Part shown: positions 48,772-62,245 of the stretch, piece after piece
Position numbering within the stretch: the stretch's first letter is position 1
Layout: the number at the start of each line of letters is the position of its first letter
From: Fibrobacteria bacterium
GTDB taxonomy: Bacteria > Fibrobacterota > Chitinivibrionia > Chitinivibrionales > FEN-1185
Direction of reading: 5' to 3'
Assembly: GCA_037447435.1 (NCBI GenBank)
Contig: JBBIGR010000030.1
Coordinates: forward strand, 1 to 62,283
Length of the DNA: 62,283 bases
Made by a program: the position numbers and the translations under genes
The notes under the pieces: generated by a model
Seen by the model: only the letters and a program-made list of their open reading frames with translations
Databases searched by the model: none
What the model was told of the DNA's origin: nothing

Positions 48772-49551
48772 ATGACGATATCAATAGAAGTATTATTGGT
48801 AATTGAATCGGAAATAGCGGCATTAACTCCTGAAAAATATCGCCGCCCGGCCATAAGGTTTGACGTTTTTATGGACGAATATGGAAAAAATCTTATCCAG
48901 GCGGAACGGGATAAAGATAAACTTATTGCAACGCAATTCGATTGGACAAAAATGGAAAAGTTCCGCGGTTATTCGGAACTATTAACCATTGCTCATGGAG
49001 AACGAATAGGGTGTGGGGCGGCAATTATTAAAAAACCGCCCGAATATTCGGCAAAAATGGCGGTGGTGAAGGCCGACAGGCGATACCTGTTTCGAATTGC
49101 CAGGCATATTGCGGACATGAGCAACGATAAAAACGTGAAACAATCCTATAGTGCCATAAGTAAAGGAACCGGCGAACTTGATATCCTCAACGACATTCTT
49201 TCTTTAGTGCATTTTATACGCAGGTTTCCGGAATATGCCCAAGAGATATCGCCTAGCGGCATAAAAATCAACGAGGAGTATATGGACAAAGCAATAGGCC
49301 GCGCCAAAGAAGTATTTGTATTGCGCGGTGATGTGATAAAAAAAGGCGAGCTGAGAAATAAGAATACAGACCGACAAAACCGGATTCTTACCCTTTGTCT
49401 TAATGCGCAATCCGAAATTAAAAAATTCGCGGATTTCGCGTTCTATGAAAATCCGGAATATTACAGGACTTATTATGCAAGCAAAGCGCGCAAACAATCT
49501 AAAGCATCGGTACCCGTACCGATGGCAGAATCCGTTGTCGCGGCAAAATAA
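48772..49551 (+). CDS. hypothetical helical protein
   Basis: 259-aa ORF with AAGGA RBS; no motif recognised. Confidence 0.75.
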   Translation: MTISIEVLLVIESEIAALTPEKYRRPAIRFDVFMDEYGKNLIQAERDKDKLIATQFDWTKMEKFRGYSELLTIAHGERIGCGAAIIKKPPEYSAKMAVVKADRRYLFRIARHIADMSNDKNVKQSYSAISKGTGELDILNDILSLVHFIRRFPEYAQEISPSGIKINEEYMDKAIGRAKEVFVLRGDVIKKGELRNKNTDRQNRILTLCLNAQSEIKKFADFAFYENPEYYRTYYASKARKQSKASVPVPMAESVVAAK

Positions 49552-50059
49552 TAATTTTTAGTACTGGGCTCCGGCAGAGATGTGTTTCAGGGTGCGTTTG
49601 GTTTCTTCCGCTTTAAAAGGCTTTGTAACAAGAGCCAATTTCCTTGTAACGGCCATAAAAAAACGCTTCAAAATCAAATAATTCTGTAACAGAGTTTCTT
49701 TTTTAGCTTCAGTTAGAAAATTTAATGTAACAGGATTCTTTTTTTCTGTAACAATGTCACAATGACTTAATAAAACCTTTGTCAATGAATTTTTAACCTC
49801 CGTTACAAAGATTTTTGAATAAGTTACATATTTTTTATACTCCGTTTCATCTTTTTTTCCTATTGTTTCATAAAAATTCATATGTGTCACATTACTTTTG
49901 AGCATTGTTAGCCGTCTTTTGCCCGCTGTTTGTTATTCTTCAACTTCTGTTAGCTAAGTTTTTTAGCCTGCAGGTGATCTTTTTACCCTTTTGCTTCGCC
50001 ATGAAGGCATGTTTTTGATTTTTTTCCATTTTTCATAATGCATTGGTATTGCGTGAGTT

Positions 50060-50106
50060 AAGGTGTAATCAACGCTTGATTACACCTTGGCTTGACATGC
50101 TATAAT
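50060..50106 (+). promoter_or_regulatory. 13-bp perfect inverted repeat plus extended -10 promoter element
   Basis: AAGGTGTAATCAA-cgc-TTGATTACACCTT (50060-50088); TGcTATAAT (50098-50106). Confidence 0.55.
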
Positions 50107-50249
50107 AACGGGATTTATTTGACTTTTAAGGTATTGAAGGACGATATTAACAAGAGGTAGGGATGTTTTTTGATTTGGTGAATATGCATAATACGCTCCG
50201 TCCTGTGGCGAGAAATAATATGCTCAGTATAAAAAGGAGGTTTATATAT

Positions 50250-51536
50250 ATGGACAACGTTCAAATAACTGATGTAAATAAATTATTACAGGAAAAGGTA
50301 TTTAACGATAGCTTTTACCAATTTCAAAGAGTTTTCCAACCAAGCATGCAAGATTCACCAATTATTGATTTGTTTGGCGATTACCAAGACGGGAATCTTG
50401 ACCATGAACCCGAATATCAACGAAAGTTTGTTTGGGATGACGAAAAGCAATCTCGCTATATTGAAAGTATAATGTACGGTATAGATACACCAATAATTTA
50501 CTTCATCGAATCTCAACGAGAAAAAAATGGAATAGTCAAGCTTGTGAAGGAAGTGATTGATGGTCGCCAACGACTTAGCACTATATTTAAATTCTACCAA
50601 GACAAATTAAAACTTACTGGTTTAAAGCAAAAAACACCTCATTATGAAGCACTAGAAGGAAATACTTTTAAAATTATTCCCAAAAAATATCAAAACATAT
50701 TTAAAGCATATAGCATACGTACCGTAACTTTTAAATTGATAGATACTAGCATTGATATGGACACACAGTTAAAATTTAAATATCAACTCTTTTACCGGTA
50801 CAATTCAGGGTTAACTGCACTAAACCAACAAGAAGTTCGTAACTGTACTTATCATAATGACAGTTTTCTTATAATGTTTAAAGAAACCGCAAGCACATCA
50901 TCCTTCTTAAAAGTCTGTCCATTTTTTAAAGATGAAGTCAGGATGGCTGATACAGAATTTGTTTCTCTTTTATACTTTTTAACATCCTTTGATGACGGCT
51001 TAATAATTTATTCAAAGAAATGGAAGAACGCATTCATTGACCAATGTTATAAAAGGTTAAGTTCTGAAATTTATTCTTTCGAAAGCTATTTTGAAAACAA
51101 TGAGAAAATTGATGTGGACGAACAAGACGAAGAAGCAGAGGAAAGCATTGACGAAGAAACAGGTCACAATGCTTCCCATATTTTCTTCGAAAACACAAAG
51201 AATGAAATTATTGACAATTTAAATAAAACATATGCGATATATGGCGATTATTTAACTGGCGCACGTTTAGAACGGTATATAATTGAAACTTTGTTCTATA
51301 ATATCTACCACTTAAAAAGTAAACTAACACGATCATTCCTTGACCAGCATGCTACCCAACTAGGTAAATATATTTATGATTTTATTGAGCAATCTAAAAG
51401 CAAAGAAAAACAAGGGGACCAAGCCTTTGGCCTTTGGGATGCATTTAATGATCGTGTCCAGGATACATCAAGAATACAATATCGTTTCAATAAAATCGGG
51501 GAATTAATTGAAACATACATCACAACCACAAAGTGA
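50250..51536 (+). CDS. DUF262 (ParB/Srx-like, GmrS-type) domain protein
   Basis: PEYQRKFVW, YIESI, EVIDGRQRLST, LFYRYNSG...LNQQEVRN; ATG 50250 follows AAGGAGG. Confidence 0.9.
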   Translation: MDNVQITDVNKLLQEKVFNDSFYQFQRVFQPSMQDSPIIDLFGDYQDGNLDHEPEYQRKFVWDDEKQSRYIESIMYGIDTPIIYFIESQREKNGIVKLVKEVIDGRQRLSTIFKFYQDKLKLTGLKQKTPHYEALEGNTFKIIPKKYQNIFKAYSIRTVTFKLIDTSIDMDTQLKFKYQLFYRYNSGLTALNQQEVRNCTYHNDSFLIMFKETASTSSFLKVCPFFKDEVRMADTEFVSLLYFLTSFDDGLIIYSKKWKNAFIDQCYKRLSSEIYSFESYFENNEKIDVDEQDEEAEESIDEETGHNASHIFFENTKNEIIDNLNKTYAIYGDYLTGARLERYIIETLFYNIYHLKSKLTRSFLDQHATQLGKYIYDFIEQSKSKEKQGDQAFGLWDAFNDRVQDTSRIQYRFNKIGELIETYITTTK

Positions 51537-51543
51537 GATCACC

Positions 51544-53412
51544 ATGGATGAAAACAATACTACATTAGCTGTTGATACCATTGACAATTCATTGTTATCA
51601 TTGCGCCAAGGGGTTAGCTCAGACATTCGTATTAAAACCTTTGTGCGTTATTACATGGAAAGCAACCTCAATCTTCGTCCTACTTACCAAAGAAACGAGG
51701 TTATTAACCGTACAAAAGCCAGCAGAGTAATTGAGAGTGCAATTCTAGGGATTCCCTTACCTCCTATTTATTTATTCAAAGACCAGAATGGTCTTTTTGA
51801 GGTGATTGATGGCCAGCAACGGTTAATATCCTTTTTAGGCTTTCTTGGTATTCTAACCATTCCAACTAAATTAAACAAATTTTTATTAACCGGTTTAGAA
51901 ATATTAACCAATCTAAATTGTAAGAATACTGATAGTGATGAATTTAAAATATTTCTTAATGAAAAAATTCGCGATTACACTCTTAGATCAATAGTATTTG
52001 AAGAGGAAAAAGGGTTTTTGTCAGAATTGAAATACGAAATATTTGAGCGCCTTAATAAAGATCCTTACCCCATTAAAGCTAATAGCTTTGAATTGTGGAA
52101 CTGTATTTACCTTAGTAACTATACAAGAATGATTAAACAAATAGCAAGAGATGATGATTTTTTACAAGTGCTTTCTAGAAAAAGTACTCCCGAAAAAGAT
52201 TTAAGAATGGATAACGAAAATGATATTTTGAGATATTTGGTTTTATTAAAAAACTACAATGACTTGAAAAACCGGGTGGATATCCCCCGAGAATTACTTT
52301 TAAATGAAGTAAAATATCATTTTGAACAAAAAACATCCGCAGAAGATTGCGAAAATATCAAACGTGAATTCTTGTCGGTTTTAAAGAATATTAGAATTGT
52401 ATTTTCAGACAGAATTACACTTGGTAATATGTCCAACAAATCAACCCGTATAAAATATCCAAATTTGACAGTTGTAGATGTGTTGTTGTTATCCTTCCGA
52501 AATGAGCAGCCCAAATTTCTAACCAAATATCGTGACGAATTATTAGAATCGTTCAAATTATTTTTCGAAGACGATATAAATCGCGCATTTATCCAAAATG
52601 CTAAAAGGGGCAACAATAAGGCCAGTTCCCCTTTAAATGATCGCTTTGAATTTTTAAAACTTCAAACTTCAGATTTAATTAAAAGGAAATACGGTCTTGA
52701 TGATTCTATTCGTATTAAAATCAGGGACCTAGATTTAGAGCATCGCCTTCTACTCAAACAAAACAACATTTGTCCTTATTGCAACAATATTATTAAACCT
52801 GGTGATACAATCCATATTGATCACATGCAATCTATCTATAACGGCGGTGGCAATGAAGAAGGCAATCTAGCAATAATGCATAGCCTTTGCAATCTTGAAA
52901 AAGGTAAAAAGAACCTTCGAAATTGGAAAGATATTATTAAATCCGGCGAAAGCGCTATTTTGGAATTTAAATCTTCCTTTAGGTGGGATTTAAAGTTGTG
53001 CCAAATCAACAAAAGTCTTGAGCAAGTTTCAATTAAGGTTGTTTTATCATTCTTAAATACCGAAGGCGGAACTTTATTAATTGGTGTTGGCGACGATGGC
53101 TCAATTCTTGGAATAGAAAATGATTATCGCACATTTAGTGGCCGCCAAGATAAAGACGGTTTTTTGCAAAATCTTACAAATGCAATTAACACCTGTATTG
53201 GCAGACAATTTTATGATTTTATTCATGTTAGTTTTGATTTTGTGGATGAGAAAGATATTTGTGTTATTCAAGTTGACCGATCTTACCAGCCCGCTTATTT
53301 AAAAACTGAAAAGGGTCAAGAATTTTATATTAGGGCAAACAATACAACTACGCCTATGAATATGCAGGAGGGAATTGAATATATTCGAGCTCATTTCTCA
53401 GATGCACCATAA
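51544..53412 (+). CDS. DUF262 - HNH endonuclease - Schlafen/AlbA_2 fusion protein
   Basis: PTYQR, EVIDGQQRL, IFERLN; CPYC...HIDH...GG...NL...H..CN..KG; GESAILEFKSSFRW...SFLNTEGGTLLIGVGDDG...FYIRANNTT. Confidence 0.9.
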   Translation: MDENNTTLAVDTIDNSLLSLRQGVSSDIRIKTFVRYYMESNLNLRPTYQRNEVINRTKASRVIESAILGIPLPPIYLFKDQNGLFEVIDGQQRLISFLGFLGILTIPTKLNKFLLTGLEILTNLNCKNTDSDEFKIFLNEKIRDYTLRSIVFEEEKGFLSELKYEIFERLNKDPYPIKANSFELWNCIYLSNYTRMIKQIARDDDFLQVLSRKSTPEKDLRMDNENDILRYLVLLKNYNDLKNRVDIPRELLLNEVKYHFEQKTSAEDCENIKREFLSVLKNIRIVFSDRITLGNMSNKSTRIKYPNLTVVDVLLLSFRNEQPKFLTKYRDELLESFKLFFEDDINRAFIQNAKRGNNKASSPLNDRFEFLKLQTSDLIKRKYGLDDSIRIKIRDLDLEHRLLLKQNNICPYCNNIIKPGDTIHIDHMQSIYNGGGNEEGNLAIMHSLCNLEKGKKNLRNWKDIIKSGESAILEFKSSFRWDLKLCQINKSLEQVSIKVVLSFLNTEGGTLLIGVGDDGSILGIENDYRTFSGRQDKDGFLQNLTNAINTCIGRQFYDFIHVSFDFVDEKDICVIQVDRSYQPAYLKTEKGQEFYIRANNTTTPMNMQEGIEYIRAHFSDAP

Positions 53413-53557
53413 TTTCTATAACGGCGCTGTCGCTCATCCTCCGCTCCGGCGCTGGAAACAAACACAAAGAGGGGCGCTACAATAAAAAGAAATATGAAAA
53501 CAAATAGAAGCGGCGGCGGAAAGACATCAAATAATAGTAGCATTCCAATTTATGTGC

Positions 53558-53695
53558 CCACAACACACGCATGCGGGGCGCAAAGCCGCCCCAAATTGCC
53601 GCATTGAAGGCTCCGTCACCGTCTTCGCTTCGCTCGCGGTGTCATGTCGCCAATGCGGCAAGGCGGGCATAGCATATGTTTAGCAAACGTTGTGT
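53558..53695. repeat. attC-like imperfect palindrome 1
   Basis: ends CACAAC...GTTGTG; internal stems GGGGCG/CGCCCC and TTGCCGCATTG/CAATGCGGCAA. Confidence 0.5.
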
Positions 53696-53813
53696 CAATA
53701 AATTTGAATGGATAGAATTGATAGCCGCCGCCGAATCAAAAGGCGAAAGAAAGAGTGGCATGCAAAAAGTCAACACAAGCCGCCTTCAGGGGCGGCGTTA
53801 ATTAGGAGAAACA

Positions 53814-54389
53814 ATGTTGCCGACCGACCTTAAAGAGAAATTTGATTTGATTCATGCTGCAGCCAATTTATTCCTTCATAATTTTGGCCCGCAATTTACG
53901 AAAACCCCAGAAGGACATATTGAAACTGATATTATAGGAGCAAGCTCTATTGCGGGTACACTTATTCTTCGGGAAACTGTAAAGGATTTAGATAAATACA
54001 CCCCAGGAACCGCAATCCTTTCTGAAGTTTATGATGATCAAAACGAAGTACTTAAATTTGTTACTGGTGTTGCGTTAACATTTGGTGTGAATTTGATGGA
54101 ACACAAAAAGAAAAAACACAATTTTGAGAAAATTATTGATTCCCACCAACCCTTGATAACGCCATTGGAAATGACACGGATATTGGAGCCGAAACTAGTA
54201 AAAGCATGTAACGATAATAATTTATCAACAGATTATGGGGCTTTTGTTGCAGGTTTGACCGCTGGTAAATTAATTGGTGTGGCTATTGAATATGGGATGC
54301 TTGATTCAAACGTTTCCAATGAATTACTTACTTATTATGTAATTGCTGGCAGCAAAACGGTTCCCTATCCATTTCACAATGATAATTAA
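53814..54389 (+). CDS. hypothetical protein (possible gene cassette)
   Basis: 191-aa ORF, AGGAG RBS, flanked by attC-like elements. Confidence 0.8.
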   Translation: MLPTDLKEKFDLIHAAANLFLHNFGPQFTKTPEGHIETDIIGASSIAGTLILRETVKDLDKYTPGTAILSEVYDDQNEVLKFVTGVALTFGVNLMEHKKKKHNFEKIIDSHQPLITPLEMTRILEPKLVKACNDNNLSTDYGAFVAGLTAGKLIGVAIEYGMLDSNVSNELLTYYVIAGSKTVPYPFHNDN

Positions 54390-54464
54390 AAAGAGCGCAT
54401 ACAATGCGCTTAAGAAAATGCATGCCACGAAAACAAAAAGAAAGAGCGGTAGTTTACAAACAAC

Positions 54465-54641
54465 ATACAACAGCCAAATGAATGCTGCGTCCGGGCAGAC
54501 CAGCCTAGGCCTTTGAAGGCTTTCTTTAATTTGTCTGTCGGCAAATTGCCAGCGTTTTAAAGCCGACACGTCATGTCGGGCATAACGCCCTTCGTCGCAC
54601 GGTTGTCGCTGACAACGTCTTGCGTTTGTTGAACGTTGTAA
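54465..54641. repeat. attC-like imperfect palindrome 2
   Basis: ends TACAAC...GTTGTA; shares CAAATTGCC, GTCATGTCG and AACGTTGT with element 1. Confidence 0.5.
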
Positions 54642-54942
54642 GAAATGCTGCCCGGCTGAATGAAATTATAGTCGGCGGCGGGAAGACAAGAAATTCAAAG
54701 ACATAATCAAGGCTGAAAGCTATTTTTAATCCATGCTTCGCATTGGATAGGTTAAAATATGTATTATCTACGCAAAATACGTAGATAATGCTGATATAGG
54801 TGCTAATCGATAAAGCAAAAGAAAGCGCCCCCCCCCCTAAGACAGGCCGCCCCCGTCTGTCGCACAGGGATGTGCCAATGTCAGACGAGGCAGGACGCCG
54901 GAAGCCTGATCTAAGGGCGGCAAAACAAAGAAATATAATAAT

Positions 54943-57807
54943 ATGAATTTTACTGATTACCATGCTAAATATTTTGCCTATGAACTTACTAAAAGGTTTT
55001 CCTCCGATGATATTGGCAAACTTGCCGGCATTTTGGTTGATGCTCAAGTTGACCTAAACCCACACCAAGTTGATGCCGCTCTTTTTGCATTTCATTCTCC
55101 TCTTGGTCGTGGAGCGCTTCTCGCGGATGAAGTCGGCCTTGGGAAAACAATAGAAGCTGGCTTGGTAATTTCGCAGAAATGGGCAGAGCGCAAACGGCGA
55201 ATATTAATTATTACTCCGGCTAACCTCCGCAAACAATGGCACCAGGAATTGCAGGAAAAGTTTTTCCTTCCTTGCCGCATCTTTGAAACAAAATCTTATA
55301 ATGCAGAAGTTAAAAACGGTAATCCAAAACCATTCGAGACCACCGATCTTATAACAATTTGCTCTTATCAGTTTACAAAGACTAAAGCAGCCGATGTCCT
55401 ACAAATTCCTTGGGATCTTGTTGTAATTGACGAAGCCCACCGCCTACGGAATGTTTATAAGCCAACCAATGTAATTGCTAACACTTTGAAACTTGCCCTT
55501 GCAAATGTGCCTAACAAGCTTTTGCTTACTGCTACACCATTACAAAATTCGCTTTTGGAATTATTCGGCCTAATCAGTTTTATTGACGAACGTGTTTTTG
55601 GCGATTTAAAAAGCTTTCGTGAGCAATATTCCCGCCTCAATGACAACCATGTTTTTGACAGTCTGAAAGTTCGGTTGCGCCCGGTTTGCCACCGTACTCT
55701 TAGACGGCAAGTAACAGCATATGTCCCCTATACAAAACGGCATCCTCTTGTCCAGCCATTTACACCGGAAGAAAGCGAAGACCGCCTATACAATCTGGTT
55801 TCAGAATATTTACGAAGGGATAATTTGCAAGCCCTGCCGGCAAGCCAACGCTCTCTAATGACTTTGGTATTGCGGAAACTTTTAGCATCTTCTTCGTTTG
55901 CAATAGCTGGTGCATTAGAATCAATTATTAAGCGATTGAAAGGCAAGCTGGCAAAAAATTCTCCCGATGTTGCGCTTGAAGACGAACTGAACAAGGACTA
56001 TGAAGGTCTTGATGAAACTTCCGAAGAATGGTCTGAAGATGAAAATCTCAATTCGCCACTAACAAACGATGAAAGCAAAGCAATTGCAAATGAAATTGCT
56101 GATCTTGAGCAGTTTCGGGAACTCGCCGTATCGATAACAAATAATGCTAAAGGAAAAGCACTTGTAACAGCACTTGAACGTGCCTTTGGCGAAGCTGATC
56201 GGCTAGGAGCTTCTCGTAAAGCAATAATATTTACCGAATCGCGAAAAACACAGCTTTATCTCCTTCGTGTTCTTGCAGACAGTCCTTTTTCAAATGGTAT
56301 AGTGCTTTTTAACGGCACAAATACGGATTCACGGTCTAAAGAAATTTATTCGGAATGGCTTGAACGCCACAAAGGTACCGATAGAGTCACCGGTTCACGA
56401 ACTGCTGATATGCGCTCAGCTCTGGTTGACTATTTCCGGGAACAAGGGCAAATAATGATTGCAACGGAAGCAGGTGCAGAAGGTATAAACCTGCAATTCT
56501 GTTCTTTGGTTGTAAATTACGACTTACCCTGGAACCCCCAACGTATTGAACAACGTATCGGCCGTTGCCATAGATATGGTCAGAAACATGATGTGGTAGT
56601 TGTCAATTTCTTAAATGTGAATAACGAAGCAGACCAAAGGGTATTCACACTCCTTGCGGAAAAGTTTTCTTTATTCGAAGGTGTTTTTGGAGCAAGCGAC
56701 GAAGTCCTCGGTGCTATTGAATCGGGCGTTGATTTTGAAAAGCGGATCGCTGGAATTTACCAGCGTTGCCGAACACCAGATGAAATTAAAACTTGTTTTG
56801 ATCAACTACAGTCAGAATTAAGTGCCCAAATTAGTGATGCCATGACGCGTACGCGCAAACAGCTTCTGGAAAATTTTGATGAAGAAGTGCATGAAAAATT
56901 AAAAATCAACATGCTCAGCAGCAAAGAATATCGTTCTCGTTACGAACAGATTCTTATGGATTTAACTGAGTATACCTTAGGCTCCGATGCAGAATTTAAG
57001 CCCGACCAGTCTTCGTTTATCTTGAAACGAAATCCCTTTGAATATAATGCAAGTATTCCATTCGGCACGTATGAGTTACCAAGACGCACAGGTGAAGCAC
57101 ACATGTATCGCCTTGGGCACCCGCTCGCTCAACAAATACTTCAGCATGCAAAAGAAAAAGAATTGCCTATTGCCGAAATCACTTTTAAATATGATGGCCT
57201 TAAAAAGATCTCAATACTTGAGCCTTTTATTGGTAAAGCCGGCGAGCTGACTTTAACGCAGTTCACCATTGAATCACTCGATCAAATTGAAGATTATCTC
57301 ATTTTTTCTGCGGTTACAATGGATGGACAGTTACTTGAAGAAGATGCCGCCCGAAGACTTTTTTCATTAGTAGCCAATAATATAGTGCCCTTAACTCAAC
57401 TAACCTATGATGACAAATTAAAAGAAGTTGCTGATAAACGTAATGCTGATATTCAGAGGACAATCTCTGAACGAAATGCTCATTTTTTTGAGGCAGAGGC
57501 GGAGAAGCTTGATAATTGGGCAGATGACATGAAGGTAACTCTTGAACGTGAAATCAAAGAGATTGACAGACAAATCCGCGAGGCAAAAAGAAGCACAACA
57601 GTTGCCCTCAGCTTGGAGGAAAAGCTTGCCGGCCAAAAGCAAATCCGAGCCTTAGAGTCTGTTCGGAATACAAAACGAAAAACATTGTTTGAGGCTCAAG
57701 ACGATATAGACAAAAGGCGCGAGGCGCTGATTAATGACATTGAGGGTAAACTTACTCAAAAATCTACGGTTAATGATGTTCTTAAGCTTCGCTGGAGAAT
57801 AAATTAA
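54943..57807 (+). CDS. SNF2-family helicase associated with type III-like restriction-modification
   Basis: LNPHQ, LADEVGLGKT, DEAH, LTATP, ATEAGAEGINLQ, YDLPWNPQRIEQRIGRCHRYGQ; C-terminal coiled coil. Confidence 0.95.
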   Translation: MNFTDYHAKYFAYELTKRFSSDDIGKLAGILVDAQVDLNPHQVDAALFAFHSPLGRGALLADEVGLGKTIEAGLVISQKWAERKRRILIITPANLRKQWHQELQEKFFLPCRIFETKSYNAEVKNGNPKPFETTDLITICSYQFTKTKAADVLQIPWDLVVIDEAHRLRNVYKPTNVIANTLKLALANVPNKLLLTATPLQNSLLELFGLISFIDERVFGDLKSFREQYSRLNDNHVFDSLKVRLRPVCHRTLRRQVTAYVPYTKRHPLVQPFTPEESEDRLYNLVSEYLRRDNLQALPASQRSLMTLVLRKLLASSSFAIAGALESIIKRLKGKLAKNSPDVALEDELNKDYEGLDETSEEWSEDENLNSPLTNDESKAIANEIADLEQFRELAVSITNNAKGKALVTALERAFGEADRLGASRKAIIFTESRKTQLYLLRVLADSPFSNGIVLFNGTNTDSRSKEIYSEWLERHKGTDRVTGSRTADMRSALVDYFREQGQIMIATEAGAEGINLQFCSLVVNYDLPWNPQRIEQRIGRCHRYGQKHDVVVVNFLNVNNEADQRVFTLLAEKFSLFEGVFGASDEVLGAIESGVDFEKRIAGIYQRCRTPDEIKTCFDQLQSELSAQISDAMTRTRKQLLENFDEEVHEKLKINMLSSKEYRSRYEQILMDLTEYTLGSDAEFKPDQSSFILKRNPFEYNASIPFGTYELPRRTGEAHMYRLGHPLAQQILQHAKEKELPIAEITFKYDGLKKISILEPFIGKAGELTLTQFTIESLDQIEDYLIFSAVTMDGQLLEEDAARRLFSLVANNIVPLTQLTYDDKLKEVADKRNADIQRTISERNAHFFEAEAEKLDNWADDMKVTLEREIKEIDRQIREAKRSTTVALSLEEKLAGQKQIRALESVRNTKRKTLFEAQDDIDKRREALINDIEGKLTQKSTVNDVLKLRWRIN

Positions 57808-57811
57808 ACCT

Positions 57812-59638
57812 ATGCCATCAAACGAAGAAAAAATAGCGCAACTTGAGGCTGCTTTTCGCCGTCGTTTCTTTCCTCATGTACCTAAAGTTGAAACGCCACA
57901 ACGTTCACAATGGGATGAACTTAAACATGACAACGACCGCCTTTCGCGAGCGCTAGCAGCATACGCATTGGTAGCACTCATTGACCTTAATGATGTTGAA
58001 GCAGCTGGCGCAATTATTGACGGCGGTGATGATTTTGGAATTGATGCTATTTATTTTGATAAATCACAATATCGTCTTTACATAGTCCAATCAAAATTCA
58101 AGCGAGCAGGGGCAGCGCCTTCTCAAGCAGAAAACCTGAAAACTATAAATGGCATACGAGCATTGCTTAGCCGAAGGTTTAATGAATTTAATGCTACTTT
58201 TCAGCGCAAGCTAGATGATGTTGAAGAAGCACTAGATACACCTGGAATCGTGATCGATCTTGTTTTATTGTACCTTGGCGAGAATTTTTCACCACATGTA
58301 ACGAATGATTTAAATGCACTCCGCGACGAACTAAATGTTCTTGCGCCCAGAATGTCATGGGAACCCAAAGGATTGAATGACATATATAATTGGCTGGTTG
58401 CAGAACAACATCCTGACTCGGTTACTCTTGACCTAACGCTTGAAAATTGGGCGCCAGTGCAATTGCCTCGTAAGGCAATTTATGGCCAACTCAATGCACA
58501 AGAACTCGCTCAATTAGTTCAAACGCATGGCAAAGCTCTTTTTGAAAAAAATATTCGCCATTATCTAGGCACCGTTGGGGTGAACCTTGCAATTACTGAA
58601 ACCGTTCGACGCAAACCGGCTGATTTTTTTTACCTAAACAATGGGCTGACAGCGCTTGCTGAATCAATTACACCGGCAGCTGGAACACCCGTAAGATGCG
58701 TATTCCGGCTTTCAAATGTGTCAATTGTTAATGGAGCACAAACAGCAGGAGCGATAGCAACCGCAGCTGTCCTTGGCACAATTTCCCCAGACGCGAAAAT
58801 TCTCTTAACCATTATAGAAACAGGTACTACACAGGATGATATTGGATTACGCATAACAAAAGCAAGAAACCACCAGAACATTGTAAGGGGTGTTGATTTT
58901 GCCGCACTCGATCCAGACCAAGAAAGACTAAGACAGGAAACAGCAATTGCCGGGTTTACCTATTATTACCGCCCATCGGCTGAAGCGCGTATACGCCGCT
59001 ATGATTCATTTACAATTGAAGATGCTGCTTTGGCAATTTCAAGCCTCAATTTTACCGCTTACACCTCAACTGAAATACTGGCAAACAGGGGTACCGGCCT
59101 TCGATTACAAAATGCCATTGATTTTGTTGTTGTGGCAAAGAAAGAATTAGGGCGCTTATGGGAACAAACTGGTAATATTTACCCTGCACTTTTCCATTCT
59201 GAATTAACCGGAGTCCGTCTTATTAGACTGGTCTCAGCATATAGGTTTATCGACCAAATCCTTGCAAGCACCGAGCAATCGGAAACCAATTATCAGCGAA
59301 GAATGTTTTTTCGCCATGGCCGCTATTTCTTGATGGCCATTATAGGCCACCGTTCTAAAGATGTGTTACAGAAAGCGGCCATAACTATTTCTACTGATGA
59401 CAAAACGCTTCTTTCTCAGCGAGTCAATGAACTTTCCGAAATCGTATACGCCGAATCAGAGCAGATGCAAATAGACAAGGGCTATCTTTCAATATTTAGA
59501 AACTTAACAGATTCACAGCCGCTTGCAGATAGGGTTATTACTCGTCTTTTTGCACGTGATCAAGAGGCCTTAGCTGCACAAGCGCAAATAGCTCAAGTGG
59601 CAACAACGACAACAACCATTACAGGAAATACAAATTAA
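57812..59638 (+). CDS. AIPR family protein (abortive infection phage resistance)
   Basis: DGGDDFGIDAI...VQSK, LFEKNIRHYLG, FFYLNNGLT, SIVNGAQT, ITKARNHQN. Confidence 0.92.
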   Translation: MPSNEEKIAQLEAAFRRRFFPHVPKVETPQRSQWDELKHDNDRLSRALAAYALVALIDLNDVEAAGAIIDGGDDFGIDAIYFDKSQYRLYIVQSKFKRAGAAPSQAENLKTINGIRALLSRRFNEFNATFQRKLDDVEEALDTPGIVIDLVLLYLGENFSPHVTNDLNALRDELNVLAPRMSWEPKGLNDIYNWLVAEQHPDSVTLDLTLENWAPVQLPRKAIYGQLNAQELAQLVQTHGKALFEKNIRHYLGTVGVNLAITETVRRKPADFFYLNNGLTALAESITPAAGTPVRCVFRLSNVSIVNGAQTAGAIATAAVLGTISPDAKILLTIIETGTTQDDIGLRITKARNHQNIVRGVDFAALDPDQERLRQETAIAGFTYYYRPSAEARIRRYDSFTIEDAALAISSLNFTAYTSTEILANRGTGLRLQNAIDFVVVAKKELGRLWEQTGNIYPALFHSELTGVRLIRLVSAYRFIDQILASTEQSETNYQRRMFFRHGRYFLMAIIGHRSKDVLQKAAITISTDDKTLLSQRVNELSEIVYAESEQMQIDKGYLSIFRNLTDSQPLADRVITRLFARDQEALAAQAQIAQVATTTTTITGNTN

Positions 59639-59639
59639 T

Positions 59640-61277
59640 ATGACGAACAAGAAAACGAAACTTGAATTAAATTGGATCGGAAAAGAAAACCGGCCCAAAC
59701 TTGAACCACGAATTCTTATTGAAGATCCCGGCAAAAGCTACCATGCAAAATACCGTATGTCAAAGATGGATTCCTTCGATAATAAATTGATTTTCGGTGA
59801 TAATTTACTTGCATTAAAAGCAATAGAGCAGGAGTATGCGGGTAAGGTAAAATGTGTGTTTATTGATCCGCCATATAACACAGGAAGTGCATTCACTCAT
59901 TATGATGATGGGATAGAGCATTCAATCTGGTTAAGCTTATTAAGGGATAGGCTTGAGCTAATCCGTCAATTACTTAGTATAGATGGTTCAATATGGATTA
60001 CGATTGATGATAACGAAGCACATTATCTAAAGATTTTATGTGATGAAATATTCGGTCGGTCCAATTTTTTATGCGATATTGCATGGGAAAAAAGATATTC
60101 GCCACCACCTGATACAAAAGACTTCGGTTACATTCATGATCATATCTTATGCTATAGAAAAACAAGCCAATTTCAGCGGAACTTGTTACCATTGACAGAA
60201 GATCAAACTGGCCGCTATAAAAATCCAGACAATGACTTAAGAGGACCCTGGAAGGCAATGGACTATACTTGCCGATATACAGCAGATGAACGCCCAAACC
60301 TCTATTACCCTATTACCCAGCCCAACACAGGAGAAACAATCTGGCCTAAAAAAACGCGTGTATGGGCCATGTCAAAAGAAAACCATTTACTTAATGAAAG
60401 AAATAAGAGTATTTGGTGGGGTACTGATGGCAAAAATTCGGTACCGGCATTAAAGAATTTCCTGAGTGAAATAAAGCAAGGCATGATGCCCATGTCTTTG
60501 TGGAAACACACACTCACAGGCCATACTCAGGATGCTAAAAAAGAAATGCTGGCACTTTACGGGAAGGATTTTTTCAGTACTCCTAAGCCGGAAAAATTAC
60601 TGAATGTTATACTCCATATCGCAACTAATCCCGGCGATCTTGTTCTCGACTCCTTCGCCGGTTCCGGCACCACCGGCGCCGTAGCCCACAAAATGGGCCG
60701 CCGCTGGATTATGGTTGAACTCGGTGAACACTGCCATACGCATATAATCCCAAGGCTAAAAAAGGTTATTGATGGCGAAGATAAAGGCGGCATCACCGAA
60801 TCCGTTTCTTGGAAAGGCGGTGGTGGTTTCCGATATTACCGGTTAGCCCCATCATTACTCTTAAAAGACAAATGGGGTAACTACGTTATCAATAAAGAAT
60901 TCAATCCGACTATGCTTGCCGAAGCTCTTTGCAAACTGGAAGGATTTACCTATTCACCATCAGATTCTCTTTATTGGCAGCAAGGCCACTCAACCGAGCG
61001 CGATTTTATTTACGTAACAACACAGACGCTCACGCACGAGCAACTACAACAGTTAAGCGAGGAGGTTGGCACAGACCGCTCCCTTCTTGTTCTTTGCCTT
61101 GCTTTTCGTGGTGCTGCAGACCGTTTTCCCAATTTAACTATAAAGAAAATACCCAAGCAGGTACTTTCGCGCTGCGAATGGGGACACGACGATTACAGTT
61201 TAAAAATAGAGAACCTTCCCAAGGCGCCGAAAGATGTACAACCGCAAACGAGCCTTTTTGAGGAGGAGGAAGAATGA
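59640..61277 (+). CDS. mod: type III RM modification subunit (beta-class adenine methyltransferase)
   Basis: KLELNWIGK, GDNLLALK, IDPPYNTG preceding TPKPE and DSFAGSGTTG, WKGGGGF. Confidence 0.93.
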   Translation: MTNKKTKLELNWIGKENRPKLEPRILIEDPGKSYHAKYRMSKMDSFDNKLIFGDNLLALKAIEQEYAGKVKCVFIDPPYNTGSAFTHYDDGIEHSIWLSLLRDRLELIRQLLSIDGSIWITIDDNEAHYLKILCDEIFGRSNFLCDIAWEKRYSPPPDTKDFGYIHDHILCYRKTSQFQRNLLPLTEDQTGRYKNPDNDLRGPWKAMDYTCRYTADERPNLYYPITQPNTGETIWPKKTRVWAMSKENHLLNERNKSIWWGTDGKNSVPALKNFLSEIKQGMMPMSLWKHTLTGHTQDAKKEMLALYGKDFFSTPKPEKLLNVILHIATNPGDLVLDSFAGSGTTGAVAHKMGRRWIMVELGEHCHTHIIPRLKKVIDGEDKGGITESVSWKGGGGFRYYRLAPSLLLKDKWGNYVINKEFNPTMLAEALCKLEGFTYSPSDSLYWQQGHSTERDFIYVTTQTLTHEQLQQLSEEVGTDRSLLVLCLAFRGAADRFPNLTIKKIPKQVLSRCEWGHDDYSLKIENLPKAPKDVQPQTSLFEEEEE

Positions 61278-62245
61278 AAACCTCGTTTCCTTTTCAGCCT
61301 GATAAACATGCCGACAATCTGTTTGAATCAATCAGCACAATTTGGAAAACTGCCCGAGAATATTCTTCCCGATCAATTAACGCCGCGCATTCCTGCGCGT
61401 GCTGGTTTTCCGGAAGACAAATCGTAGAATATGAGCAACACGGGGCCCGTAAAGGCGCCTACGGTGCAGGTGTTTTAAAGAGTATTTCTGAACGGCTTTC
61501 TAAACAGTATGGCATCGGTTTTTCTGTAAGCGGGCTGCAATATATGAGGGCATTTTATCGTGAATACCCCGAATACTTATCAATTCAACACGCAGTGCGT
61601 GTTAAATCTAACATCGAAACATCGTCGAAGAAACAACACGCAGTGCATGTCAAATCCGGCGATATTAAAGATGTTATTATGGATTTTTCAGCAATTCTCC
61701 ACGCTCCGAGTGAAATTTCCGACGCATTGCCTCGAAATTCTAATAGCGATAGTAGCAGAAAAAATACGGCATGGAAACCTGGGATTTTCAATCCGAATTT
61801 ATCATGGACACATTACAGGCAACTGATTAAAGTAAAAAGAATTGAAGCCCGCAACTTTTACGAAATAGAATCCATAAAAAACGGTTGGTCTGCGCGGCAA
61901 CTCGAACGGCAGATAGACTCTTTGCTCTTTGAGCGGCTGTTGAAAAGCCGGGACAAAAAAGGCGTTCTTGCACTTGCAAATAAAGGGCAGGAAATTTCAA
62001 AGCCAATTGACATTATAAAAGATCCCATTGTTCTGGAATTCCTCGATTTGCCCGAATCTCATCGTCTCAATGAGACACGACTCGAAACAGCCCTGATCTC
62101 AAAATTGAAAGACTTCCTTCTTGAACTTGGGAACGGGTTTGCATATGTTGGCCGCCAAAAAAGATTGACCTTGGAGGGTGACCATTTCTATCCGGATCTC
62201 GTCTTTTACCATATCAAGTTAAAATGTTATAGCCGCATCGCGTGA
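61274..62245 (+). pseudogene. DUF1016/YhcG PD-(D/E)xK nuclease-like gene, C-terminally truncated
   Basis: GRQIVEYEQ, YG, LSWTHY, WSARQLERQI, IKDP..LEFL, FLLELGNGF, DLVFYH; homology ends at KCY and a stop follows before the (D/E)LK motif. Confidence 0.75.

Follow-up and report, generated by a model that had tools for sequence, protein, structure and literature searches.

Two adjacent genes, A and B, lie at positions 50250-53412 of the 62,283-nucleotide (nt) stretch of DNA analyzed here (hereafter the window; contig JBBIGR010000030.1 of the Fibrobacteria bacterium assembly GCA_037447435.1), and raise the question of whether their two DUF262 proteins, one of them joined to nuclease-type domains, act together against phages. 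By analogy with described systems, we conclude that A and B probably form a nucleotide-gated heterodimeric anti-phage DNase, in which the Schlafen tail of B would be an optional RNase back-up. Gene A (50250-51536, + strand; ATG at 50250, TGA at 51536) encodes 428 amino acids (aa), with a DUF262 domain and a helical ParBDB-like domain that carries an acidic loop, and has no nuclease domain. It is preceded by the ribosome-binding site AAGGAGG (50234-50240, + strand). Gene B (51544-53412, + strand; ATG at 51544, TAA at 53412) starts after a gap of 7 nt (51537-51543) and encodes 622 aa, with DUF262, a helical domain, HNH and Schlafen/AlbA_2.

A first, sequence-only reading had described two AT-rich genes 7 nt apart, each with an N-terminal DUF262; it gave A an acidic tract and no nuclease, and B an HNH and a C-terminal AlbA_2 domain with intact acidic motifs. 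Coordinates, Pfam domains and GC content agreed with this description. All Pfam domains of both proteins exceed the curated cut-offs. The only Pfam match of A at E<=0.1 was GmrSD_N/DUF262 at residues 39-201 (E 1e-20), while B matched GmrSD_N at 44-172 (1e-11), HNH PF01844 at 410-455 (6e-7) and SLFN_AlbA_2 at 469-606 (2e-17). The GC content is 32.3% for A, 32.4% for the core of B and 34.4% for the AlbA part, compared to 45.6% for the genome. A carries the motif DGRQR at residue 104 and an acidic tract at 288-303 (51111-51158, + strand), which falls in a low-confidence loop of the structure model. B carries DGQQR at 89, CxxC at 410, DH at 426-427, HxxCN at 446-450, ESAILEFK at 469-476 and IGVGDDG at 513-519. 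The HNH domain (52771-52908, + strand) is of the McrA-type zinc-binding kind by Pfam and alignment, and its residues C410, C413, D426, H427, N441, H446, C449 and N450 are invariant in 28/28 aligned B proteins. The accessory Schlafen/AlbA_2 domain (52948-53361, + strand) retains an intact Ex4ExK motif (E469, E474, K476). The three DUF262 motifs of A are invariant in 29/29 aligned sequences, and the two proteins are distant paralogues with 31% identity over 189 residues. The acidic tract was present in 5/5 A proteins checked (12 D/E in 20).

We also found a 4665-nt contig from a public sequencing run, possibly the run from which the window was assembled, that covers 50023-54687 with zero differences. 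Since one contig crosses the locus in this way, the arrangement of A and B is not a scaffolding artefact, and misassembly at the 5' junction was ruled out.

To what extent A and B belong together is seen from their relatives. The A search returned 73 proteins, among which are 28 full-length relatives other than A itself, with 48-64% identity. The B search, with lengths of 342-1089 aa and the best 7999 candidates scored, returned 106 proteins; the close family comprises 32 clusters including that of B itself (51-99% identity). Gene A is located immediately upstream of B in 16/19 close-family loci from genomes and metagenomes, among which L022-L024 and L025-L026 are near-duplicates. Of the other three loci, L006 holds a remnant of A and no B, and in two B lies at the edge of its contig. 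The HNH motif was found in 30 of the 32 B clusters, and both exceptions are truncated proteins. AlbA_2, by comparison, occurs in B's own cluster and in P0076 (79% identity) alone (2/32), and most tail-less relatives stop right after the HNH, at 454-469 aa. A search with the HNH and AlbA region over the same lengths (342-1089 aa) gave no third carrier of both domains among its 52 matches, though distant members with a Schlafen tail may have escaped it. Therefore, the core works, if at all, without the tail, and the earlier idea that the Schlafen domain defines the system was rejected. Of the two features whose conservation that reading had proposed to check, the adjacent pair recurs and the AlbA_2 fusion is rare.

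All carriers with a name belong to the Bacteroidota (Marinifilum, Mariniflexile, Lutibacter, Polaribacter, Saprospiraceae). A search of 80 other genomes from the host's order, many of them incomplete, gave no A orthologue (best 119 bits compared to 643), which is consistent with horizontal acquisition of the pair; the low GC content of the genes also points to mobility. No conserved third gene was seen before or after the pair in related loci. Among viral contigs, none of the 50 pattern matches was confirmed.

The distant relatives are proteins of 740-1050 aa with two DUF262 modules; two PF03235 stretches were detected in 22 long relatives among 29 proteins scanned. In a tree of 89 modules (FastTree, 186 columns, from a hand-picked set of 7/29 A, 7/32 B and 21 fused proteins), the sister group of A is formed by 21 N-modules (support 0.98) and that of B by 21 C-modules (support 1.0). 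The tree was repeated with 94 modules. The first module type, comprising A and the N-modules, has the motifs YQRxxVW, DGRQR and FxRYNSG. The second, comprising B and the C-modules, has YQRxEVIN, which is without the motif-I tryptophan, DGQQR and FxRLNxxP. This asymmetry is common to the split and fused forms and was seen in nearly all 21 fused proteins examined. Taken together, the tree and the motifs indicate that A and B are split halves of a wider single-chain tandem-DUF262 family. Fused forms that end in an HNH are 850-870 aa long and occur in Clostridioides, cyanobacteria and others. An HNH-less tandem-DUF262 gene is coupled to a PIN_8 gene of ~370 aa at two loci (L030:5902-9281, L033:70-3419). 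A further form of 1016-1053 aa has a C-terminal extension resembling TaqI_C/type I specificity domains and is followed by an SMC/AAA ATPase gene of ~630 aa at seven loci (L034, L040, L041, L043-L046). The latter pair is a candidate two-gene defence system, and we found no description of it in the literature searched.

The complex prediction for A with residues 12-460 of B scored 0.51 compared to 0.00 for the best control; the runs agreed in at least 65% of contacts, and the partner had a predicted local distance difference test (pLDDT) value of at least 74. The pass mark of this test is attained by 116/157 solved complexes and 2/215 mismatches, and a pass at a score of 0.60 or less is reached by just 18 of the 157 solved complexes plus both mismatches, so that the result gives weak support to an A-B complex. 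The heteromeric unit proposed by the sequence-only reading is likely from the fused relatives and the tree, with this weak addition from the complex prediction. The model of A alone has a mean pLDDT of 76.8, falling below 50 at 274-300. Its best structural match was BrxU (Foldseek E 8e-3, prob 0.95; VIA Z 7.2, rmsd 9.8, 301 aligned), with SspE and ParB next and middling scores. Foldseek with the B model returned HNH domains alone (E>=0.077); no Schlafen match appeared because the AlbA domain was modelled poorly, and its absence is uninformative about the AlbA fold. In the sequence search against solved structures, B matched HNH alone and A matched nothing. The ESM Atlas gave generic GmrSD_N clusters for A.

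We then compared A and B with known systems. In the PADLOC profile set of 2023, the top profile was Menshen NsnA for both A (34-424, E 1e-45) and B (27-372, E 1e-41), followed by PD-T4-2 A. GmrSD-type profiles cover the motif alone, and SspE and HEC-06 match just the motif region (E 1e-4). NCBIfam holds no named family for A or B. Like A and B, NsnA combines ParB-DUF262 with a ParBDB-like helical domain. However, NsnA acts through a separate ATPase (NsnB) and effector (NsnC) and not as a restriction enzyme (PMC12065111), whereas in A and B the module is duplicated, asymmetric and fused to a nuclease. NsnB and NsnC are absent beside the pair, which is followed by the gene of a 191-aa orphan and then by that of an SNF2 helicase.

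A similar design is that of TgvAB of Vibrio cholerae VPI-2, in which adjacent genes in the order of A and B encode DUF262 and DUF262-DUF1524, with DGxQR in both; TgvAB restricts glucosyl-hmC phages and requires both genes (PMC11411939, PMC11014532). TgvAB and GrwAB each need the nuclease and the two genes, with the DUF262 motifs of both; their behavior is not typically abortive, and the reason for having two DUF262 proteins is stated as open (PMC11411939, PMC12137116). The nuclease of TgvB is DUF1524, whereas that of B is a McrA-type zinc-finger HNH; no PF07510 (DUF1524) match was found in A or B at E<=0.1, and none in the genome. TgvAB also has no Schlafen tail and is frequently inside type I restriction-modification (RM) systems. 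With the profiles of A and B, a plasmid TgvAB homologue pair (L085) scored no more than 10.6 bits, in the DGQQR motif only, compared to 80-88 bits for an NsnA-like protein; the N-termini of this pair correspond to entries in Table S5 of PMC11411939, and its TgvB is cut at 598 of 680 aa. No TgvAB homologue was found in four stretches of one E. coli chromosome. The TgvA/B homologues cluster with GmrSD/BrxU types in a clade separate from A and B. Membership in TgvAB/GmrSD was rejected on the absence of DUF1524, homology limited to DGQQR and the separate clade. A and B converge on the TgvAB design from another DUF262 branch.

GrwAB of the V. cholerae VSP-II WASA island likewise consists of two DUF262 proteins that are each required and are modelled as a complex; one of them carries a His-Me nuclease (PMC12137116). 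Its DUF262-DUF1524 gene comes first, so that the order is reversed relative to A and B, and GrwB has further unknown domains; we set it apart by description. BrxU, GmrSD and SspE share the DUF262 NTPase, helical domain and His-Me nuclease. However, BrxU and SspE are homodimers with two DUF1524 nucleases (10.1101/2024.01.29.577857), whereas A and B are a predicted heterodimer with one HNH, and membership in the GmrSD/BrxU/SspE type IV group was rejected because neither protein contains DUF1524. PD-T4-2 pairs a DUF262 gene with a HEPN gene (PMC10952713); A and B have no HEPN partner, and the PD-T4-2 A profile matches part of the length. DUF262-Schlafen fusions are catalogued as pSlfn7, a class of 109 members (1.8%), and EcoSlfn7 protects against T7 and other phages (PMC13056530). 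They resemble B in the N-terminal GmrSD_N, the C-terminal SLFN_AlbA_2 and the Ex4(E/D)xK motif. By its description, pSlfn7 is a single-gene class, with no HNH label in the annotation table, while B has a Pfam HNH and the obligate-looking partner A.

With these two-gene designs and Schlafen fusions published, the earlier suggestion that the architecture as a whole is undescribed is not supported. The accessible parts of PMC10952713 and PMC4619093 list DUF262 systems without this family, and no paper on tandem or paired DUF262 was found in a search whose coverage ended short of subscription journals and bioRxiv supplements. A term search found nothing relevant in PMC13069673, 10.1101/2025.02.28.640651 or PMC13092281. 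The NsnA-branch family of tandem DUF262 with a McrA-type HNH is absent from the literature searched; every domain and both pairings have precedents.

The question of what the tail of B does was approached through selection, computed against L018, a copy with 96.5% identity. The ratio of non-synonymous to synonymous change (pN/pS) is lowest in the HNH, at 0 (0/8 changes non-synonymous), followed by the B core with 0.015 and A with 0.024. In AlbA_2 it is 0.19, with 6 non-synonymous and 8 synonymous changes (p 0.003 in a binomial test against neutrality); the last two residues account for two of the six non-synonymous changes, and E469, E474 and K476 are the same in L018. This pattern indicates that the tail is under purifying selection, kept but less constrained. 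In RorSlfn5, a tRNase purified in oligomeric form, the same motif, Ex4ExK, has been shown to be catalytic (PMC13056530). Relatives of this AlbA_2 gave 50 other matches, mostly with 35-48% identity, and 17 of them are on DUF262 proteins, so the DUF262-AlbA_2 pairing recurs. Six DUF262-AlbA proteins were scanned and are BrxU/HEC-05- or PDC-M55C-like; their DUF262 lies in a different clade from A and B, and DNase-plus-Schlafen fusions have therefore arisen more than once. Other hosts of related AlbA_2 domains are type IIG methyltransferases, BrxL, HsdR, kinases and response regulators.

Based on these comparisons, a mechanism can be proposed. A and B would dimerize like the intertwined homodimers of BrxU and SspE, with two non-equivalent nucleoside triphosphate (NTP) sites. 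Binding and hydrolysis of NTP at the DGxQR sites would clamp the dimer onto DNA and permit the single HNH to act, which would make nicks, or double-strand cuts through A2B2 or neighboring complexes. From the likeness to described systems, we consider this dimerization and NTP-gated HNH, with an anti-phage role, quite likely. By analogy with TgvAB, GrwAB and BrxU, the complex would be triggered by a modification of the DNA or by its structure. The trigger is uncertain because the family belongs to the NsnA branch, and we put sensing of modification at slightly below an even chance. If restriction fails, clustered activated complexes would bring the Schlafen domains together, leading to tRNA cleavage and translation arrest. 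The tail has about an even chance of being an active RNase.

Several observations weigh against the proposal of a gated DNase with an RNase back-up. Every function of the family is assigned by analogy. The nearest named profile is Menshen NsnA, which is not a restriction enzyme, and the modification specificity of TgvAB need not carry over, since homology stops at the DGQQR motif. The NTP site of module 2 could be structural and not catalytic because the motif-I tryptophan is absent. Halves of a split gene, or likeness to a BrxU-type dimer, may also yield a pass in the complex prediction. AlbA is the least constrained part of B: the two carriers are 69% identical there, compared to 88-90% in DUF262 and HNH and 71% in the helical region. 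It also has no confident fold, as pLDDT is below 50 over most of 459-622 in the B model. Since its nearest relatives sit on methyltransferases, BrxL, HsdR, kinases and response regulators, the tail may be a binding or regulatory add-on. In addition, broken copies occur (A is frameshifted in L002, both genes are broken in L025/L026, and L006 is a remnant), and the system is therefore readily lost.

The alternative that survives best keeps A and B as a working restriction-type core and sees the AlbA_2 tail as a non-catalytic passenger, or as an add-on for nucleic-acid binding or oligomerization without an RNase role. The spread of the same AlbA_2 clade over many unrelated proteins, its rarity on B and its constraint below that of the core fit this explanation. 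However, both carriers have kept the Ex4ExK motif intact, with no change to it in L018, purifying selection on the tail is significant, and other DUF262 proteins make up 17/50 of the nearest carriers. We regard a non-catalytic tail as possible, with the greater part of the probability lying elsewhere.

Less likely is a Menshen-like sensor platform that acts mainly by abortive infection, with a toxic effector that differs from lineage to lineage; here the Schlafen RNase would be a main killing agent, and the HNH would damage host DNA too. The nearly full-length NsnA matches of both proteins point in this direction, as do the other outputs of the HNH-less fused relatives (PIN_8; TaqI_C-like extension with SMC/AAA ATPase) and a Schlafen motif that is intact and under selection. 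However, the Schlafen domain is missing from 30/32 B clusters while the HNH is invariant, and thus the Schlafen RNase cannot be the main effector of the family. Moreover, NsnB and NsnC are not next to the pair, and the analogues TgvAB and GrwAB are not typical abortive systems. We consider this platform unlikely, and the gated DNase with an optional RNase tail is retained.

How the pair moves is suggested by its flanks. In 6/12 loci, a GTTnnnn located 30-46 nt ahead of A is matched by a fully complementary nnnnAAC 2-9 nt beyond B. L018 has the same complementary sites at wider spacing (168 and 145 nt), and among the other loci three have two mismatches, one has three mismatches and one has no site. 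The sites after B fold as hairpins in the matching loci (z -2.0 to -7.6 against mononucleotide shuffles). When control genes were put through the same test, 5/126 passed; they look like neighboring cassettes because all of them are in L003, L021 and L024 at the same spacing. In the window, an attC-like site (CCACAAC ... GTTGTGT; 53558-53695, + strand) closes the A and B cassette; its fold is weak (z -1.8), while the site is canonical-looking in L018. These attC calls were made without an attC model, and the arm spacing of the window and Bacteroidota sites departs from what we take to be the canonical one. A generic genome-wide attC scan gave a noisy result in which the sites of the window did not appear, and a simple pattern search found none. 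The host genome contains an integron integrase (TIGR02249, 408.6 bits; cut-off 265) on another contig (C10:452-1387). The integrase gene is at the start of its contig and has an extra N-terminal region; its array is probably across the contig break.

The flanks suggest that A and B travel as an integron-type cassette. Such flanks also argue that the pair is self-contained and apart from the downstream cluster of SNF2, AIPR and Mod genes. The 5' core site of the cassette is absent from the window, where a repeat stands in its place, and the attC-like sites fold weakly or not end to end; this copy may therefore be fixed. The cassette format, the nuclease domains in the second gene, an acidic tract in A that could mimic DNA and the frequency of toxin-antitoxin pairs among integron cassettes would suit an addiction module or anti-plasmid cassette in which A inhibits B and no phage defence is involved, but this is very improbable, given that all three DUF262 motifs of A are invariant (29/29), that single-chain proteins contain a homologue of A as their N-module, where an antitoxin role is implausible, and that conservation of the acidic tract does not extend to the fused forms (6-10 D/E in 20 across 21 relatives).

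In a wider and more tentative interpretation, which we hold to be possible but doubtful, the family would be an undescribed and widespread defence class. A duplicated, asymmetric ParB-like DUF262 clamp, in one chain or two, would be the DNA sensor shared by the class, with outputs that can be exchanged: HNH DNase, HNH with Schlafen RNase, PIN partner, or specificity domain with SMC-like ATPase. The copy in the window would be a two-tier version carried on an integron cassette, combining cutting of phage DNA with translation shut-down. Split and single-chain forms with a fixed difference between modules make the question of the two DUF262 proteins directly testable. The presence of the tail in 2/32 B clusters provides a natural comparison, with and without, for an abortive RNase back-up on a restriction-type nuclease. 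The finding also widens the role of integron-type cassettes in carrying two-gene defence systems. With precedents for all domains and both pairings, no new biochemical principle is involved.

The repeat that stands where L018 has its 5' core site is ~190 bp long (49984-50169, + strand), contains a palindrome and a promoter-like stretch, and has several copies in the genome. It may supply the promoter for A, and could act as a mobile promoter or as an attI-like point of entry. Copies were found on C16 (twice), C93, C58, C26, C15 and C2, with partial ones on C3, C44 and C28; the two on C16 are among cassette-like genes and attC-like sites. Upstream, at 48772-49551, is a gene of 259 aa with no Pfam family and with paralogues on C58, C44 and C93. 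The C58 and C44 paralogues are followed by parts of the ~190-bp repeat region. In the Atlas, this gene gave unnamed clusters and a weak lead to DUF6261.

Outside the A and B system, a second cassette-like gene of 191 aa (53814-54389, + strand) has attC-like sites on both sides and no family in Pfam, PADLOC or NCBIfam. The attC-like site after it (54465-54641, + strand) shows no end-to-end fold. The Bacteroidota loci L001, L004, L007 and L021-L024 contain arrays of attC-like cassettes with OLD ATPase-TOPRIM and other genes, and no integrase was noticed in the fetched flanks. Some relatives have genes for an OLD-type ATPase-TOPRIM, a type ISP RM system or a Fic protein beside them, and such company is in line with a defence role. 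A defence cluster at 54943-62245 (+ strand), which reaches the contig end, encodes a DrmD-like SNF2 helicase, AIPR, a type III Mod methyltransferase and a YhcG/DUF1016 nuclease. We treat it as context that fits an anti-phage role, and a link to A and B was rejected: the association is not repeated in related loci, and the flanks of L018 differ. The SNF2 helicase gene directly follows the second attC-like site and a REP-like repeat that has many copies in the genome.

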